From positions 1-42,184 of the IMG/VR virus record IMGVR_UViG_2579779052_000008: a stretch of DNA of 42,184 nt. One strand, 5' to 3'. The stretch comes from a virus (lineage: Duplodnaviria; Heunggongvirae; Uroviricota; Caudoviricetes). Below, one piece after another: positions 24,001 through 30,000 of this stretch; position 1 is the stretch's first letter; every line of letters begins with the position of its first letter. The position numbers were made by a program.

Positions 24001-27000
24001 GCAAATCACGGTTTCATTATCAAGCCCACCAGTAGATGGGCTTTGTAATGGCTACTTCGCTTTTGCTTCCGCTCGCTTACGCCGGCGCTCTTCTTTCCTC
24101 TCGGCTTTTGCCATGTCCATGAATGCCTGCATGATCGAGTTCCGCATCATGTAGCTAACAAAGTGATGATTGACACAGCCGTTGAGGCGCAGCTGCTCGC
24201 CAAACTCATCCACCGAGGCCAATGCTTCCATCATGCCCTTCTCGCCTTTCATGAACTCTGAGAAGTCGCGCCCCGCTCTGGAGGCGCATTCAATAACACG
24301 ATCACTCATCCCGGAAGCCCGGGGATCGTAATCTGCAGCTGGTTAGCCAGGGAGTTAATCTCAGCGACCAACACTGGCTTCGTATAGCGCCATGCTGCCA
24401 GCCCTTGTCCGCAGAAGCTCGCCATGTCTTTCTTCTGGTCAAACTCATGACATTTCATGTTGAGCTGCGCACTTAAGCTGTTGCGATGCTGAAGTTCTCC
24501 GGTGAAGTAGTCATCGAGGACTTTATAGGCCGCGTACTTGAACCCGGGGTTTAACCAAGCCGCATAATCGTAAGCAACAAACTTCCCGCCATATGTTCCA
24601 CCGTGTACACCGCGCTCAGTAAAAACCACAGATTCGTGGTTTTTCTCCAGCTCGGCTAAGAACTCTTTGGTCTGCTTGTTTCGCAGGTAGTGGTAAGGCG
24701 ATTCAGATTCACTTTTACCACTGGCTTTCCACATATCAGTGAGGCAGATCATTCCTGATTCATCAACACGGATCGGTGTATTAAAAAGCGTGATTGCTTT
24801 CATAGCGTCTTTACCTTTTAGAAAGATGAGCCTGTTCGCACAGAAAAGCCGCCCCGAGATGGTCGCCACCATATACGGCAGTTCTCAGGCTCAGCTTTCT
24901 GAAAGACTCGGGATTGTTATGCGCTGCGATGCGCGGTTTACTGCGGGCATAAAAAAGCCCGACCGAAGTCAGGCTCTGTTATTTGGGTAACGAATCATTT
25001 AAGACACTGCTCTTTGATGTAGTCCTGCATGCCGCGAATCATCTTGTCAGCGGTTGCGATTCCGTCCCGGTGATCGAAATAATTCCGTCGAGCGTCTGGA
25101 GTAAGTTCGGGGGCTCCTGCATCATCCACGCCGGTGGAGGAGCTGGCTTTTGGCACTCCAGGGCAGGTTGCGGCGATGCGCAGCCGTTTAGCGCCAGAAT
25201 CGACATCCCGACGCAAATCGTTAATGGTTTTTTTCGCATCGGACAATTCCTTCGTGTATTTGGCATCGAGCGCAGCGACGTCTCTCTGGCGGGTCTGCAT
25301 GTCAGCGATGATGGATGTGGCTTTATCGCGCTGCTCTTTGTAGGAGATGGCGTTATCACGGTAATGATTAACAGCCCATGACAGGCAGACGATGATGCAG
25401 ATAACCAGAGCGGAGATAATCGCGGTGACCCTGCTCATACCTCAATCTCTCTGACCGTTCCGCCTGCTTCTTTGAATTTTGCTATCAGGCTGTCAGCCTT
25501 ATGCTCGAACTGACCATAACCAGCGCCAGGCAGTGAAGCCCAGATATTGCTGCAACGGTCGATAGCCTGACGAATATCACCGCGATCAATCATCGGTAAA
25601 GCGCCACGCTCTTTAATCTGCTGCAGAGCTACAGCGTCCTGGCTTTCTGGAGAAAAATCTTTCAGGCCAAGCTGTTTACGGTAAGCATCCCACCAACGGG
25701 AAAGAAGCTGGTAGCGTCCGGCGGCTGTTGATTTGAGTTTGGGGTTTAGCGTGACAAGTTTGCGAGGGTGATCGGAGTAATCAGTGAATAGCTCTCCGCC
25801 AACAATGACGTCATAACCATGATTTCTGGTTTTCTGACGTCCGTTATCAGTTCCCTCTGACCATGCCAGCATATCGAGGAACGCCTTACGTTGATTATTG
25901 ATTCCCACCATCTTCTACTCCGGCTTTTTTAGCAGCGAAGCGTTTGATAAGCGAACCAATCGAGTCAGTACCGATGTAGCCGATGAACACGCTCGTTATA
26001 TAAGCGAGATTGCTACTTAGTCCGGCGAGGTCGAGAAGATCACGAATGAACCAGGCGATAATGGCGCACATCGTTGCGTCGATTACTGTTTTTGTAAACG
26101 CACCGCCATTATATCTGCCGCGAAGGTACGCCATTGCAAACGCAAGGATTGCCCCGATGCCTTGTTCCTTTGCCGCGAGAATGGCGGCTAACAGGTCATT
26201 TTTTTCTGGCATCTTCATGTCTTACCCCCCAATAAGGGGATTTGCTCTATTTAATTAGGAATAAGGTCGATTACTGATAGAACAAATCCAGGCTACTGTG
26301 TTTAGTAATCAGATTTGTTCGTGACCGATATGCACGGGCAAAACGGCAGGAGGTTGTTAGCGCGACCTCCTGCCACCCACTTTCACGAAGGTCATGTGTA
26401 GAAGGCCGCAGCGTAACTATCACTGATGAATTCAGGATAGCCAGTGGCTACGGCTCAGTTATGGTGCTGGTTAACGGACTTGAACCGCTACCCATTCGCT
26501 TACAAGGCGACTGCTCTACCATTGGAGCTAAACCAGCATGTTTGGCGGGACAGCGTGGACTCGAACCACGATAAGAAGGTTAACAGCCTTCCGTAATGAC
26601 CTTTATACGACTGACCCAAATAAAAAAAGCCACCGTTGCAACTTAAGAGTCACTAACGGCAGCTTACATCTTTAAACGGTATGATATTTCATTCTGGCTG
26701 CCTCAAAAGCCGCAGCGGCAAGTTCGGCAGTGCCATGGTATCCAAGGTTAATACACTTTCCAGACGCATTAATTCTTGCTCTCCATTTCCCGTACTTAGC
26801 ATCCCAAGACACGCCACGGTATCCAGATTTATTATTCTTCTGAATTTTCCTGTTTTGCATATTTTCGGAATGAGTGACAAGACGAAGATTTGATATCCGG
26901 TTATCTGTTCTTACCCTGTTGATGTGATCAATAAAACCATCGGGCATGGTGCCATAAACAATCAACCATGCCAGTCTGTGAGCAGGGTATGCTTTACCAT

Positions 27001-30000
27001 TAATCATAATCATTAAATACCCATCAGAATTTATTGATGAGCATTTCTTGAAAGCAAAACGAGAGTTCCATGTCAAAGTGGTCCTCTCTCTCCCCTGCCT
27101 CCATCTCCAGTGAAAGTCGCCTGATGATGGATTGTAATCAACAACAGAAAGCACCATTTCTGGCGTTAATTTTATTTCTTTCATCGCTTTACCTTAGGGA
27201 TAGAGCCTGTTCGCGTAGATATGACAGCCAAGAGCGGAGCGATGTTTCCACCACCATATCTCAGGCCCATATCACTAAGACTCTTGTTTTGATTGCACGC
27301 GAATGCAAAAAAGCCCACAGGAGGTGGGCTTGTGATGGTTGCTGAATGCAAAAGCAGCAGCATATGTGAATATTATGGCTAAATGGCTAATTGCATGTCA
27401 AGGCTTTTAACGGCAACATGCTTAACTTTCTCAACACGTTTACGCATTTTGAAAGCATTTTGCATTGGCTGGTATAAAACAAATAATGACGCTTTCAGGA
27501 TGTCGTCAATTTCGTTTCTACAGGTTGCCAGTGAAGGTTTTCTCCATCCCTCGCCACCACGTCCACACATCTTGCGTGGCTTTGCAGTCGCGTGATAGTA
27601 GGATGCAATTGCTCGCTTAGATGAACCATGAGCGTAGTAGCTGAGGAGGATGCCAAAGGCTTTCTTGTCAATGTACATGACGGAATCGACGACCTGAGAA
27701 ATCAACATTCCATCATCATCATTGCACATTGGCCTTGTCATAACTCTTCCCGGCTCTACGCTCTCCATGAACTTCGCTATTACGCTGCTCATGCGCTTTT
27801 CCAGACGACCTGAATAAACCCATGCGCCCCACAGTTCAAGCCAGCCATTCAGCCACTCGTGCTGCTCTTTGGTGAGGTTTAGTTCTCTTATGCCCACGCG
27901 CCTTCTCCCTGTACCTGAATCAATGTGAGGTTTCCGCAGAACACTGCGCCGGTATCGATATACATCTGGTTGGCAAAATTGAGTGGTTTCACTGCTGGCG
28001 TATGACCAAAGATGAACATGTCCGCGCCTTTGATTTCTTTCACGATCCCGTCTTGTGAGTTGCTGATTCGTTCGCGGTTCCAGATTACCTGCTGATGATC
28101 AACTGGCTTTCCAAACTCGTATTCGTCACAAGGATAATCTGCGTGGCAGATGACATATTTTTTATCTTTGCTCACCAGTTCGATGATTAACGGAAGTTCT
28201 TCTGCTTTATGGGCAAGAGCTTTAGCCAGAATTTCTTTGTCGTAATCGAGATTAAAGAACCAGCCACCGCCATTAAACAGCCAGTGATTGACGTTTCCGC
28301 GCTCTGATAAGCCATCAATCATCATTTGCTCATGGTTTCCACGTACAACTCGGAACCAGGGGAATGTGATTAATTCCAGACATTCGACGTTCTCTGTACC
28401 GCGATCGACCAAATCGCCAACCGAGATAAGCAGGTCTTTTTTGGTGTCGAATCCTATCGTCTCCAGTTTTTTCATCAGGTTCGTGTAGCATCCGTGCAGA
28501 TCGCCAACTACCCAAATATTTCGGTATTTGCTGCCATCAATTCTTTCGTAATAGCGCATCTCTTTCACTCCATCCGCGATGAACCATGAGAACGTCGTTA
28601 ACGATGGCGTGCATTTTCCCGTCTTTATCATCAACGTATTTTCTGACCGTGCCGCGACTACATTTCAGTCTGCGTGCTACTTCTGTCTGGTTTCCGTATG
28701 CTTCAACGAGCATGTCTGGAATGGTTTTTACTGAGAACGTCATGCGGCCTCACTTCTGCTATTTCGCAGGTCTTTGAGTTTCTGTTGGTACTCTGCCTTG
28801 ATCGCCTTGCACTCTTCGATAGTCCAGCGATGGCGGTTATGGTTTGATTCGATTTCGTCTACTGCTTCCTGCCCGATGCGGATAATCAGTTCGACGCGAT
28901 ACGGAACGAGATTTCCACTTTTGTGCTGGTTGCACACCACGCATTGCTTGTGAATATTGCGTTCATCAAATCGGAGTTGAGGTGCCGCAGCAGTTGTCCG
29001 GTAATGTCCGGCATCCCACTGAGCAGACGTGAGCGTTCCGCACGAGATACATGGTAAGTCGCGGTCTCTTTCTCTGATGAAGGCGTTTACGGCTTGTTGG
29101 GCTTGTTTAATCCAGTAACTGCGGGGCTTTAAGGCGAGTTTTCGAATCTTCAGTTTATCTTTCTGTTTCTGCTCCTCTCGTCGTCGTTTCTTCTCTGCTG
29201 CTTTTTCCGCTTTTTTTCGCTGTTTACTTTGTAGTTTGAGTGCTAACTGAGTTCCGTGTTCCGGGCAGCACCACCACTGATTTGAGAATGCCGGGTGAAA
29301 CCATTCCTTGCATATTTTGCATTTCCTTCGCGCTGGTTTAGCCATCGTCTTCTTCCTCGTACATTGAGCTATTCGGATCGCTCATCAGTTCTGCGCAGCA
29401 GTGCTCACACACGTGAACTTCCAGCACATGCAGCTTTTGACCGCAGTTAGCGCACGTTAAAGCCCGCTCGACGCTTTGTTGTTCGTAACTTCGATTTGGG
29501 TCAATCACCTTGTTTTCCTCGCACGTTCTCTAAGCCACCGGATATCCCACAGGTGAGCCGTATAATTGAAGGTTTTTACATCAGATTCTTTTGGGATTGG
29601 CTTGCGTTTATTTCTGGAGCGTTTCGTTGGAAGGTATTTGCAATTTTCGCAGATGATGTCGGTGATATTTCGTCGCTGTCGTCTCATGCCGCCCTCCTGA
29701 CGCCCTGCCCGATCGCCATCAATGCCGCTTTGGATACGGTAGTAAACATCCGTCGAGGACTGATGAACGGTCGCCAAATCAGCAGCATGGAGCCTTTGCT
29801 GTTTCCCTTCTTCTCCAGCCCTGTCGATGGTTCGATAAAATTAATCCGTCCATCAGTGATAATACGAACTTCGTCAACACTCTCCAGAGCCTTGCTGAAC
29901 CATCCGACTGACATATCCTCTGGCACAAGCATCACTACCGTCTGTCGCTGTTGTATGCACTGCTCAGCGGCTTTTTCCACCCACGGCCTGATATTGCTGT

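Follow-up and report, generated by a model that had tools for sequence, protein, structure and literature searches.

What does the interval between the antiterminator gene Q and the first lysis gene, S, of a lambdoid prophage contain, and which part of it is new? The question is raised by a 42,184-nucleotide stretch of DNA from a virus of the Caudoviricetes (IMG/VR record IMGVR_UViG_2579779052_000008, positions 1 to 42,184; hereafter the window), in which a sequence-only reading had described positions 26219-27378 as the slot where phages encoding Shiga toxin (Stx) carry their toxin genes. All coordinates are window positions, and the features of interest are found on the minus strand and are listed in the direction of transcription: Q, the late promoter pR', terminator 1, a structured mRNA leader, an HNH-AP2 gene, terminator 2, tRNA-Asn, tRNA-Thr, a hairpin and S (Table 1). 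The sequence-only reading was right to place a Q-to-S slot with a late promoter here (Q21-type Q, TTGACA-18-CATAAT, S at 26218), and what the interval contains is the 5' end of a late operon belonging to a lambdoid prophage whose Q antiterminator is of the phage-21 family. The slot is already known from the deposited sequences of phages Sf6 and HK629 and of the Escherichia coli E2348/69 prophage, since the last two hold the same arrangement in annotated form, and in itself it adds nothing new. The new item is the structured leader inside it, which is real by covariation, widespread and uncatalogued. It had been missed together with terminator 2: a search for small ORFs or sRNAs had been advised for the unassigned bases, whereas the relevant stretch precedes the HNH-AP2 gene (27304..27185). 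Taken jointly, the architecture of the late operon and the reality of the RNA structure of the leader are held with good, though not complete, confidence.

The leader fills the space between terminator 1 and the ATG of the HNH-AP2 gene. Sequence collections were scanned with patterns derived from this stretch (copy 1), and a covariance model, R1, was built from the hits. In all, 91 leader copies were found in 88 sources, 83 of the copies being distinct; a scan of genome contigs with a loose pattern gave mostly chance matches in GC-rich genomes, and no more than 5 among the 80 listed loci proved genuine. The window contains a second copy, of a divergent type, which is located directly past the terminator that follows Rz and directly ahead of a gene with KilA-N and ORF11CD3 domains. 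This gene probably starts at ATG 24803, the mechanical list of open reading frames (ORFs) running on upstream to 24872. The stretch of copy 1 is 83% identical to one in Klebsiella phage Kp4856-1, where it comes after a different terminator and before a different gene. The architecture comprises a small hairpin, P1 (UUGCA-UUCGCG-UGCAA in copy 1), and a long hairpin made up of four helical segments, in which a seven-nucleotide bulge, RYGCGAA, is conserved. The minimum-energy fold of copy 1 has the same architecture as the family model, as does that of copy 2 (-47.1 kcal/mol). The Shine-Dalgarno AAGG of the HNH-AP2 gene is paired, in copy 1, with the basal arm on the 3' side of the long hairpin. 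Across the family, 77 of 81 sequences have a Shine-Dalgarno-like motif that overlaps the 3' arm of this basal helix and lies a median of 8 nt from the ATG. A T-run with a stable fold is found within 70 nt upstream in 77 of the 83 copies.

The pairing of this structure is maintained by compensatory change. In an alignment of the 83 distinct sequences fitted to the model, a procedure that inflates pairing, 92.7% of the cells were paired, versus 35-49% when the partners were slid by one to three columns. Changes on both sides were observed at 29 of the 39 pairs (7-13 in the slid controls), double-change cells numbered 410 (17-85 in the controls), and the covariation score reached 0.367 (0.05-0.08 in the controls, with a maximum of 0.084); none of 500 shuffles attained any of the observed pairing or covariation values. 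Independently of the fitted alignment, the basal stem can be read directly in at least four unrelated spellings, for example CUUUCCGUAGUGUGAGUCUG/CAGGCUCGCACCACAGAAAG, CUUUCAGAAAGCUGAGCCUG/CAGGCUCAUCUUUCUAAAAG and CACAUAG.../...CUAUGUG, and MAFFT combined with RNAalifold, also independent of the model, recovered P1 and the core helix. The 225 G.U pairs far exceed the 48 A.C mismatches, which assigns the structure to the RNA of the coding strand and speaks against a DNA palindrome. That the 120 nt are instead a linker or boundary at the DNA level, kept by the recombination that swaps accessory genes and devoid of RNA function, would agree with the many mosaic phages in which one and the same sequence leads up to a common ATG while the cargo gene that begins there differs, and with the boundary sequences annotated in Sf6. 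Recombination, however, does not select compensatory base changes such as those observed on both sides of most pairs, and the persistence of pairing in several stem sequences, together with a tolerance of G.U about five times that of A.C, is a strand-specific signature of RNA, which makes the linker a very improbable explanation.

The leader is non-coding, because copies differ from one another by one-nucleotide indels. A 60-residue ORF (27181..27363, minus), which extends from the late leader across terminator 1 and over the structured leader, is probably not a gene and was rejected as one on account of these frame-breaking indels and the absence of a Pfam match. Its stop codon overlaps the ATG of the HNH-AP2 gene (ATGA), and similar ORFs are labelled "hypothetical protein" in several phage records. 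Recognition of the leader would improve annotation, as small spurious "hypothetical proteins" are now called over it. Two further candidate elements within the leader were discarded. A pairing that would sequester the start codon (CAUCGY/RCGAUG) covaries between the HNH and Klebsiella types and is absent from divergent copies such as copy 2, and an apical boxA-like CGCUCUU, considered as a nut-like element, is replaced by CUCUCGG or CUCGGG in other subtypes and is not conserved. No match to the leader was found in Rfam 15, using window positions 27150-27420 and the Klebsiella copy, and hits at thresholds of E up to 10 were at chance level (P9, Trp_leader, mir-627 and similar). Nothing is described at the position of the leader in a review of phage small RNAs (sRNAs), a paper on the anti-sRNAs of enterohaemorrhagic E. 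coli or a preprint on the Pas sRNAs, and other literature could hold a description. Nor was any link to the region found for the Pas sRNAs of E2348/69 or for AgvB and AsxR, with PasB lacking a sequence for formal exclusion.

The genes found downstream of the leader belong to the KilA-N, Rha (Phage_pRha), ANT/KilAC, ORF11CD3, T5orf172/MUG113 and HNH_3-AP2 families. About 42 copies are located just after Rz and about 9 between Q and S, with the remainder elsewhere in late or structural regions, and the hosts include E. coli, Salmonella, Klebsiella, Enterobacter, Hafnia, Serratia, Pantoea, Leminorella and Symbiopectobacterium. The divergent subtype alone has matches in 153 phage records and, among 5426 complete E. 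coli genomes, in 919, about one in six; what the records annotate under these matches is "none", "terminator", the cargo gene that follows or small hypothetical proteins. Stx2a phages contain two copies (L327 1181-1330 and 2547-2697), one before an antirepressor gene between R and Rz and the other before a Rha gene after Rz. In phi24B a copy lies directly ahead of d_ant (L328 6845-6994). The d_ant gene is the proposed target of the small RNA 24B_1, whose microRNA-size precursor hairpin was considered as a member of the leader family and found to be unrelated, only the sequence upstream of d_ant giving a match. Five IMG/VR contigs (L044, L094, L096, L221 and L230) carry two leader copies a few kb apart, each with a different accessory gene. 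Because several contigs hold two copies before different accessory genes, the leader is suggested to mark repeated accessory-gene slots in late operons. Little is understood of the accessory proteins, some of which, such as that of phi24B d_ant, affect the balance between lysis and lysogeny; a shared RNA control element would make the regulation of their genes directly testable.

As to how the leader might act, the basal helix would bury the Shine-Dalgarno sequence, and the leader would then gate translation or direct processing after Q-dependent read-through. Such a translational or processing gate has slightly less than an even chance of being its mode of action. There is, in addition, a conserved complementarity, P2, between the 5' flank of the long hairpin and the 3' side of its apical part (CCCGAG/CUCGGG, CAAGAG/CUCUUG and CGAGAG/CUCUCG in different copies). 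It is possible, if on the unlikely side, that the two folds of the leader, taken as about 120-150 nt long, define a new class of riboregulator, a switch between the hairpin that buries the Shine-Dalgarno sequence and the P2 fold that responds to a ligand, to a protein or to processing. If so, a single riboregulator would control Rha, KilA-N, ANT, Bro and HNH/GIY-YIG-type genes in temperate phages across the Enterobacterales, including ant and rha beside the lysis genes of Shiga-toxin phages.

The leader could also be mainly an element of RNA processing or stability, that is, a site for RNase III or RNase E or a 5' stabiliser, which separates the accessory mRNA from the late transcript. Its helix is long, almost unbroken over roughly 30 bp, and has conserved internal loops, in all of which it resembles the substrates of RNase III known from the lambda N leader and from T7 sites; leader copies are moreover located within late operons that are polycistronic, be it after Rz, between R and Rz or between Q and S. 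On the other hand, the element keeps its position with respect to the start codon, and its helix overlaps the Shine-Dalgarno sequence in 77 of 81 copies, both of which point to translation, and we regard a role mainly in processing or stability as doubtful. Processing and translational activation are in any case compatible, as they are in the lambda N leader.

Table 1. Features of the late-operon start and of the second leader locus, in window positions.
Feature	Position	Strand	Evidence or detail
Q antiterminator gene, phage-21 family, 172 aa	27379..27897	minus	Pfam Phage_antitermQ 1e-25
Late promoter pR'	27372..27401	minus	-35 TTGACA 27401..27396; -10 CATAAT 27377..27372
Tandem 8-bp repeats in the pR' spacer, putative Q-binding element	27392..27385; 27384..27377	minus	AATTAGCC; ATTTAGCC
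Type-B late leader	27305..27371	minus	starts ATTCACA-TATGCTGCTGCTTTTGCATTCAGC, then terminator 1
-10-like TATGCT, putative sigma-dependent pause element	27364..27359	minus	7 nt past the -10 hexamer
Terminator 1	stem 27331..27311; T-run 27310..27305	minus	begins 48 nt past the Q stop codon
Structured mRNA leader, copy 1 (about 120 nt)	27185..27304	minus	between terminator 1 and the HNH ATG; R1 109 bits, E 1e-22
HNH_3 + AP2 endonuclease-family ORF, 170 aa	26672..27184	minus	Pfam HNH_3 2e-18, AP2 1e-8
Sf6/phage-21-type leader remnant and terminator 2 (tR')	26620..26667	minus	TAAGCT 26666..26661; hairpin 26665..26627; T-run 26626..26620
tRNA-Asn (GUU), CCA encoded, discriminator G	26543..26617	minus	ARAGORN; Rfam tRNA 55.3 bits
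tRNA-Thr (UGU), CCA encoded	26462..26537	minus	ARAGORN; Rfam tRNA 61.5 bits
Lambda-type S-upstream sequence	26219..26460	minus	includes hairpin 26374..26345, then GUUUUG
Holin S, lambda family, first lysis gene	25895..26218	minus	Pfam Phage_holin_3_1 7e-30
Intrinsic terminator after Rz	24951..24975	minus	AGCCUGAC-UUCG-GUCGGGCU + U6; sequence and fold
Structured mRNA leader, copy 2, divergent type	24804..24938 (R1 match 24938..24791)	minus	R1 51.7 bits, E 1e-9, filters off
KilA-N + ORF11CD3 accessory gene	24306..24803	minus	Pfam KilA-N 7e-16, ORF11CD3 2e-13; behind copy 2

The setting in which the leader would be transcribed is defined by Q and its promoter. The Q protein matches the phage 21 Q structures PDB 6JNX and 6P18 (E about 1e-92 over 162 aa), residues 1-102 being almost identical to Q21 and the C-terminal part divergent. 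A calcineurin-like phosphoesterase gene (a NinI-type Ser/Thr phosphatase of 248 aa, 27888..28634, minus) overlaps Q from upstream, as in Sf6; in HK629 and E2348/69 it is NinH that directly precedes Q. In a consensus scan, pR' matched the consensus at 11 of 12 positions. It overlaps the 3' end of Q and extends partly beyond the limits of 26219-27378 within which it had been placed, the promoter itself being real. From Q through the -10 hexamer the DNA is 99% identical to that of Shigella phage Sf6, and the promoter, including the 8-bp repeats and the -10 hexamer, is identical to that of Sf6, for which the record gives "nearly identical to phage 21 late promoter". Structural work on Q21 established that the binding site of Q consists of two 8-bp subsites, arranged as a direct repeat within -40..-1, and that the only downstream requirement is a pause element at its native position. 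According to the phage L genome paper, AATTATCC/ATTTAGCC is the likely Q-binding element (QBE) for this Q subtype, and the part of Q that contacts DNA is the divergent C-terminal one. The assignment of the spacer repeats as QBE is accordingly an indirect one, because the C-terminal part of the Q encoded here differs from that of Q21.

Downstream of the promoter, the type-B leader contains TATGCT, a candidate sigma-dependent pause element that shares its register with the TAAGCT of Sf6 and is invariant across five related leaders. The block TATGCTGCTGYTTTTGCATTCAGC is identical, and at an equal distance from the -10 hexamer, in five related phages, which include Hafnia phage yong1 and contigs L046, L073 and L078, and the 8-bp repeats vary among the phages that keep it. 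Those of yong1 (ATTGAACA/AATGAGCA) are close to the phage 21 QBE quoted in the phage L paper. The Q of yong1 is of the same family (72% DNA identity), and homology with the window continues unbroken through the type-B leader and terminator 1, after which yong1 proceeds directly to the holin gene. With this homology in yong1 and a block common to five phages, the type-B leader is not a by-product of the insertion. In the yong1 record, phage-21-like repeats and the type-B leader (about 1940-2090) are accompanied by a structured-leader copy after Rz and before a Rha gene (3415-3563).

Two terminators, and not one, are present in the slot. Terminator 1, together with the leader before it, folds with -21.5 kcal/mol (z -4.2); it corresponds to the intrinsic terminator placed by the sequence-only reading at 27305-27329, which is real, with its stem at 27331..27311, but is followed by a second at 26665..26620. 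The latter folds with -20.2 kcal/mol (z -3.7) and is found directly upstream of tRNA-Asn. The first had been named tR', yet it is the type-B terminator shared with yong1; a tR' of the Sf6/phage-21 type does exist in the slot, after the HNH-AP2 gene. The limits of the insertion are set by comparison with Sf6, whose record lists a late promoter, a qut site and tR' and, behind them, tRNA genes for Asn and Thr described as "similar to phage 21". The alignment of the window with Sf6 is intact up to the end of the -10 hexamer at 27372, breaks off there and is taken up again from 26667 (26667..26150 aligned); the window therefore contains 704 extra bp, 27371..26668, right after the -10 hexamer. From 26667 onward the sequence is that of the Sf6 leader, beginning at about +1 with GTAAGCTGCCG..., and then of the Sf6 tR' hairpin, a stretch that the Sf6 record labels as qut site and tR'. 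The variable cargo is restricted to 27371..26461. The history of the locus may thus have been one in which a type-B leader with its terminator and a bracketed leader/HNH-AP2 cassette were placed before the type-A remnant, tR' and the tRNAs, with the left joint exactly between the -10 hexamer and +1.

A mechanism can be proposed on this anatomy. RNA polymerase would start at pR', at about 27366, just past the Q stop codon, and would probably pause at the -10-like TATGCT, where Q bound to the 8-bp repeats of the spacer would be loaded. Without Q, terminator 1 would end the RNA at a length of about 60 nt and terminator 2 would stop what leaks through, and this RNA of about 60 nt would be an analogue of the 6S RNA of lambda and, following the description in a review, of StxS. 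With Q, both terminators would be passed and HNH-AP2, tRNA-Asn, tRNA-Thr and S-R-Rz would be contained in a single RNA, from which the tRNAs would be cut out.

Several points weigh against these interpretations. The pair counts of the leader derive from a model-fitted alignment, a bias that the slid controls and the directly read stems mitigate and do not remove, and copy 1 is not significantly more stable than its shuffles (z -1.6). P2 competes with the long hairpin, and a simple model in which closed means off is therefore incomplete. Pausing, Q loading, read-through and tRNA processing are drawn by analogy with phage 21, lambda and Sf6, and the action of the leader is what we infer from the observed anatomy, homologies and covariation; the C-terminal, DNA-contacting part of Q is moreover unlike that of Q21. 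Finally, the HK629 record places a "putative late promoter pR'" past the first terminator (L001 1732-1737) and leaves the promoter at the end of Q unannotated, in conflict with the Sf6/phage-21 assignment. This annotation, which looks misplaced, would allow an independent promoter for the HNH gene, but the consensus scan found no promoter there. A promoter inside the structured leader, be it TTGGCT-16/17-CAGGCT or the HK629 site, was rejected, as it is missed by the scan and is not conserved in divergent copies.

The gene behind copy 1 contains HNH_3 (66 bits) and AP2 (35.7 bits) domains, each above the Pfam cut-off, which bears out its earlier description as an HNH-AP2 gene. It had been called AT-rich and is only mildly so, with a GC content of 39-44% compared with about 50% in the flanks. 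The product is 99.4% identical to HK629 gp62, "HNH endonuclease", and beyond HK629 and the E. coli copies its nearest relatives reach at most about 43% identity. Relatives are found in 3776 phage records, many of them annotated as homing endonucleases. As in phage and cyanobacterial HNH-AP2 proteins and in HNH_3 proteins of the I-HmuI type, the order HNH_3 then AP2 and the DH...N...N motif are kept, and weak matches relate the HNH part to I-HmuI (1U3E) and the AP2 part to plant AP2 (7WQ5). The description of the gene as homing-endonuclease-like holds for the domains; "homing endonuclease" is nevertheless a family label only. The leader is shared with KilA-N, Rha and ANT genes, and terminators enclose the gene as they do other accessory cassettes of late operons.

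Were the gene a selfish, free-standing homing endonuclease, it would have been inserted with its leader into an Sf6-like pR'-tR' region and would cut genomes that lack it. The phage HNH family is very large, and many of its members are annotated as homing enzymes, F-TflVI and F-TflVIII from T5-like phages among them. The site is polymorphic, with sharp boundaries, among phages that are 98-99% identical, the gene being absent from the Sf6 type and present in the window, HK629 and E2348/69; the mild AT-richness would also fit. Recombination in the region is indicated by the PhiR12 phages, whose homology breaks 68 nt into the HNH ORF. In PhiR12_1 (L004 1462-2255), Q, pR', terminator 1, the leader and those first 68 nt are common with the window, and past this recombination joint inside the HNH gene there is Stx-phage-like cargo, "unknown protein encoded within prophage CP-933V". 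Against homing, the same bracket of leader and terminator serves KilA-N, Rha, ANT and T5orf172 genes at similar sites and is therefore a general accessory-gene slot, not one specific to HNH. Unrelated phages, too, have divergent HNH-AP2 genes between Q and the holin gene, which suggests long residence: L046, L073 and L078 carry one there behind a leader of the same type, with its own terminator and then the holin gene, and in L046 and L073 the cassette is bracketed by terminators. No target site, duplication or co-conversion tract was identified at the locus. Some part of the region is matched by 1483 of 5426 complete E. coli genomes, of which 37 match at least 80% of it, and the presence of the gene in only those 37 is unlike an efficient invader. 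A selfish homing element is thus distinctly unlikely.

The two tRNA genes that had been noted after the HNH-AP2 gene were accepted both by ARAGORN and by the Rfam tRNA model RF00005, for which the gathering score is 29. The acceptor stem of tRNA-Asn contains one U.U mismatch. This tRNA is annotated in Sf6, in E2348/69 and in many P22-like phages, and tRNA-Thr in Sf6 and E2348/69; according to the phage L paper, the excision of such tRNAs from late mRNA is undetermined. A comparison of codon usage, as the sequence-only reading had recommended, lends little support to a simple supply of codons. In the 27 late ORFs, Thr codons are distributed as ACA 0.15, ACG 0.32, ACC 0.40 and ACT 0.13, and AAC makes up 0.62 of the Asn codons. 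The last figure agrees with the view that the tRNAs supply codons commoner in late genes than in the host, AAC accounting for only 48% of Asn codons in the genes upstream of Q. Late-gene usage of Thr and Asn is nonetheless near that of ordinary E. coli genes, and a role in codon supply is therefore only weakly supported; HK629, besides, manages without both tRNAs in the corresponding slot. We consider codon supply rather unlikely, with the replacement of host tRNAs attacked by anticodon nucleases as an equally hypothetical alternative. ARAGORN also reported a tRNA-Arg(CCT) at 1126..1198 (+), near the start of the window and possibly the tRNA of the integration site, and an 83-nt "tRNA-Ala(CGC)" at 34361..34443 (+), within the early region of the prophage.

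Between the tRNAs and S, what had been taken for cargo turns out to be lambda's own DNA. Window positions 26460..25890 are 97.5% identical to lambda 44945-45514, and the hairpin and the bases before S are for this reason backbone and not cargo. The hairpin at 26374..26345 is real, with the 10-bp stem attributed to it (-24.8 kcal/mol, z -3.6), and about 126 bp, given earlier as about 130 bp of unassigned cargo, separate it from the S start codon. Its stem has one mismatch in Sf6 and one in the window, at different positions and without compensatory change. The ribosome-binding site of S is in a CCCC-UUAU-GGGG stem-loop, and a dual start, ATG-AAG-ATG, is found at 26218/26212. Tandem terminators have reportedly been described in this part of lambda. 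The lambda record annotates no feature between orf-64 and S. The Pfam scan of ORFs found no toxin ORF between tR' and S; as HNH-AP2 is the only ORF of the slot (27371..26219) with a family match, the slot contains no toxin gene, in agreement with the sequence-only reading.

Compared with known systems, the locus is closest to those of Sf6 and phage 21, with which it shares Q, a promoter with 8-bp repeats, the tR' hairpin, tRNA-Asn(GUU), tRNA-Thr(UGU) and a lambda-type region upstream of S; it differs from Sf6 by its insert, which supplies HNH-AP2 with the structured leader in front of it, one more terminator and a different initial transcribed region. HK629 (gp61-gp63 region) is 99% identical to the window from Q through HNH and terminator 2 but has 194 unrelated bp where the window has the tRNAs. 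The prophage of E. coli O127:H6 E2348/69 contains the whole arrangement, including both tRNAs, at 98.8% identity, and the full arrangement is also found in at least 16 complete E. coli genomes. The records of HK629 and E2348/69 annotate the HNH gene, and the structured leader in neither. The general plan of Q, pR', one or more terminators, tRNAs, cargo and then lysis genes is shared with the Stx phages 933W and phi24B. The phi24B record lists Q, pR', qut, two terminators, three tRNAs, stx and S, but its tRNAs are Ile, Arg and Ser instead of Asn and Thr, and the cargo of the window is a nuclease-family gene and not a toxin. The anti-sRNAs AgvB and AsxR of the Stx slot are absent from that of the window, since the Rfam scan gives no match there.

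For the leader itself, one counterpart is the lambda N leader, in which the Shine-Dalgarno sequence is sequestered or the RNA is processed by RNase III. Others are P22 sar and the c4 RNA of P1 and P7, examples taken from the review, which resemble it in that an RNA element lies directly upstream of an antirepressor-like gene and involves the ribosome-binding site. C4 is present in Rfam, yet the leader gives no match, so that the likeness is not one of sequence or model. Unlike these antisense or trans-acting RNAs, the leader is a cis hairpin on the mRNA itself, and it serves nuclease genes as well as Rha, KilA-N and ANT genes.

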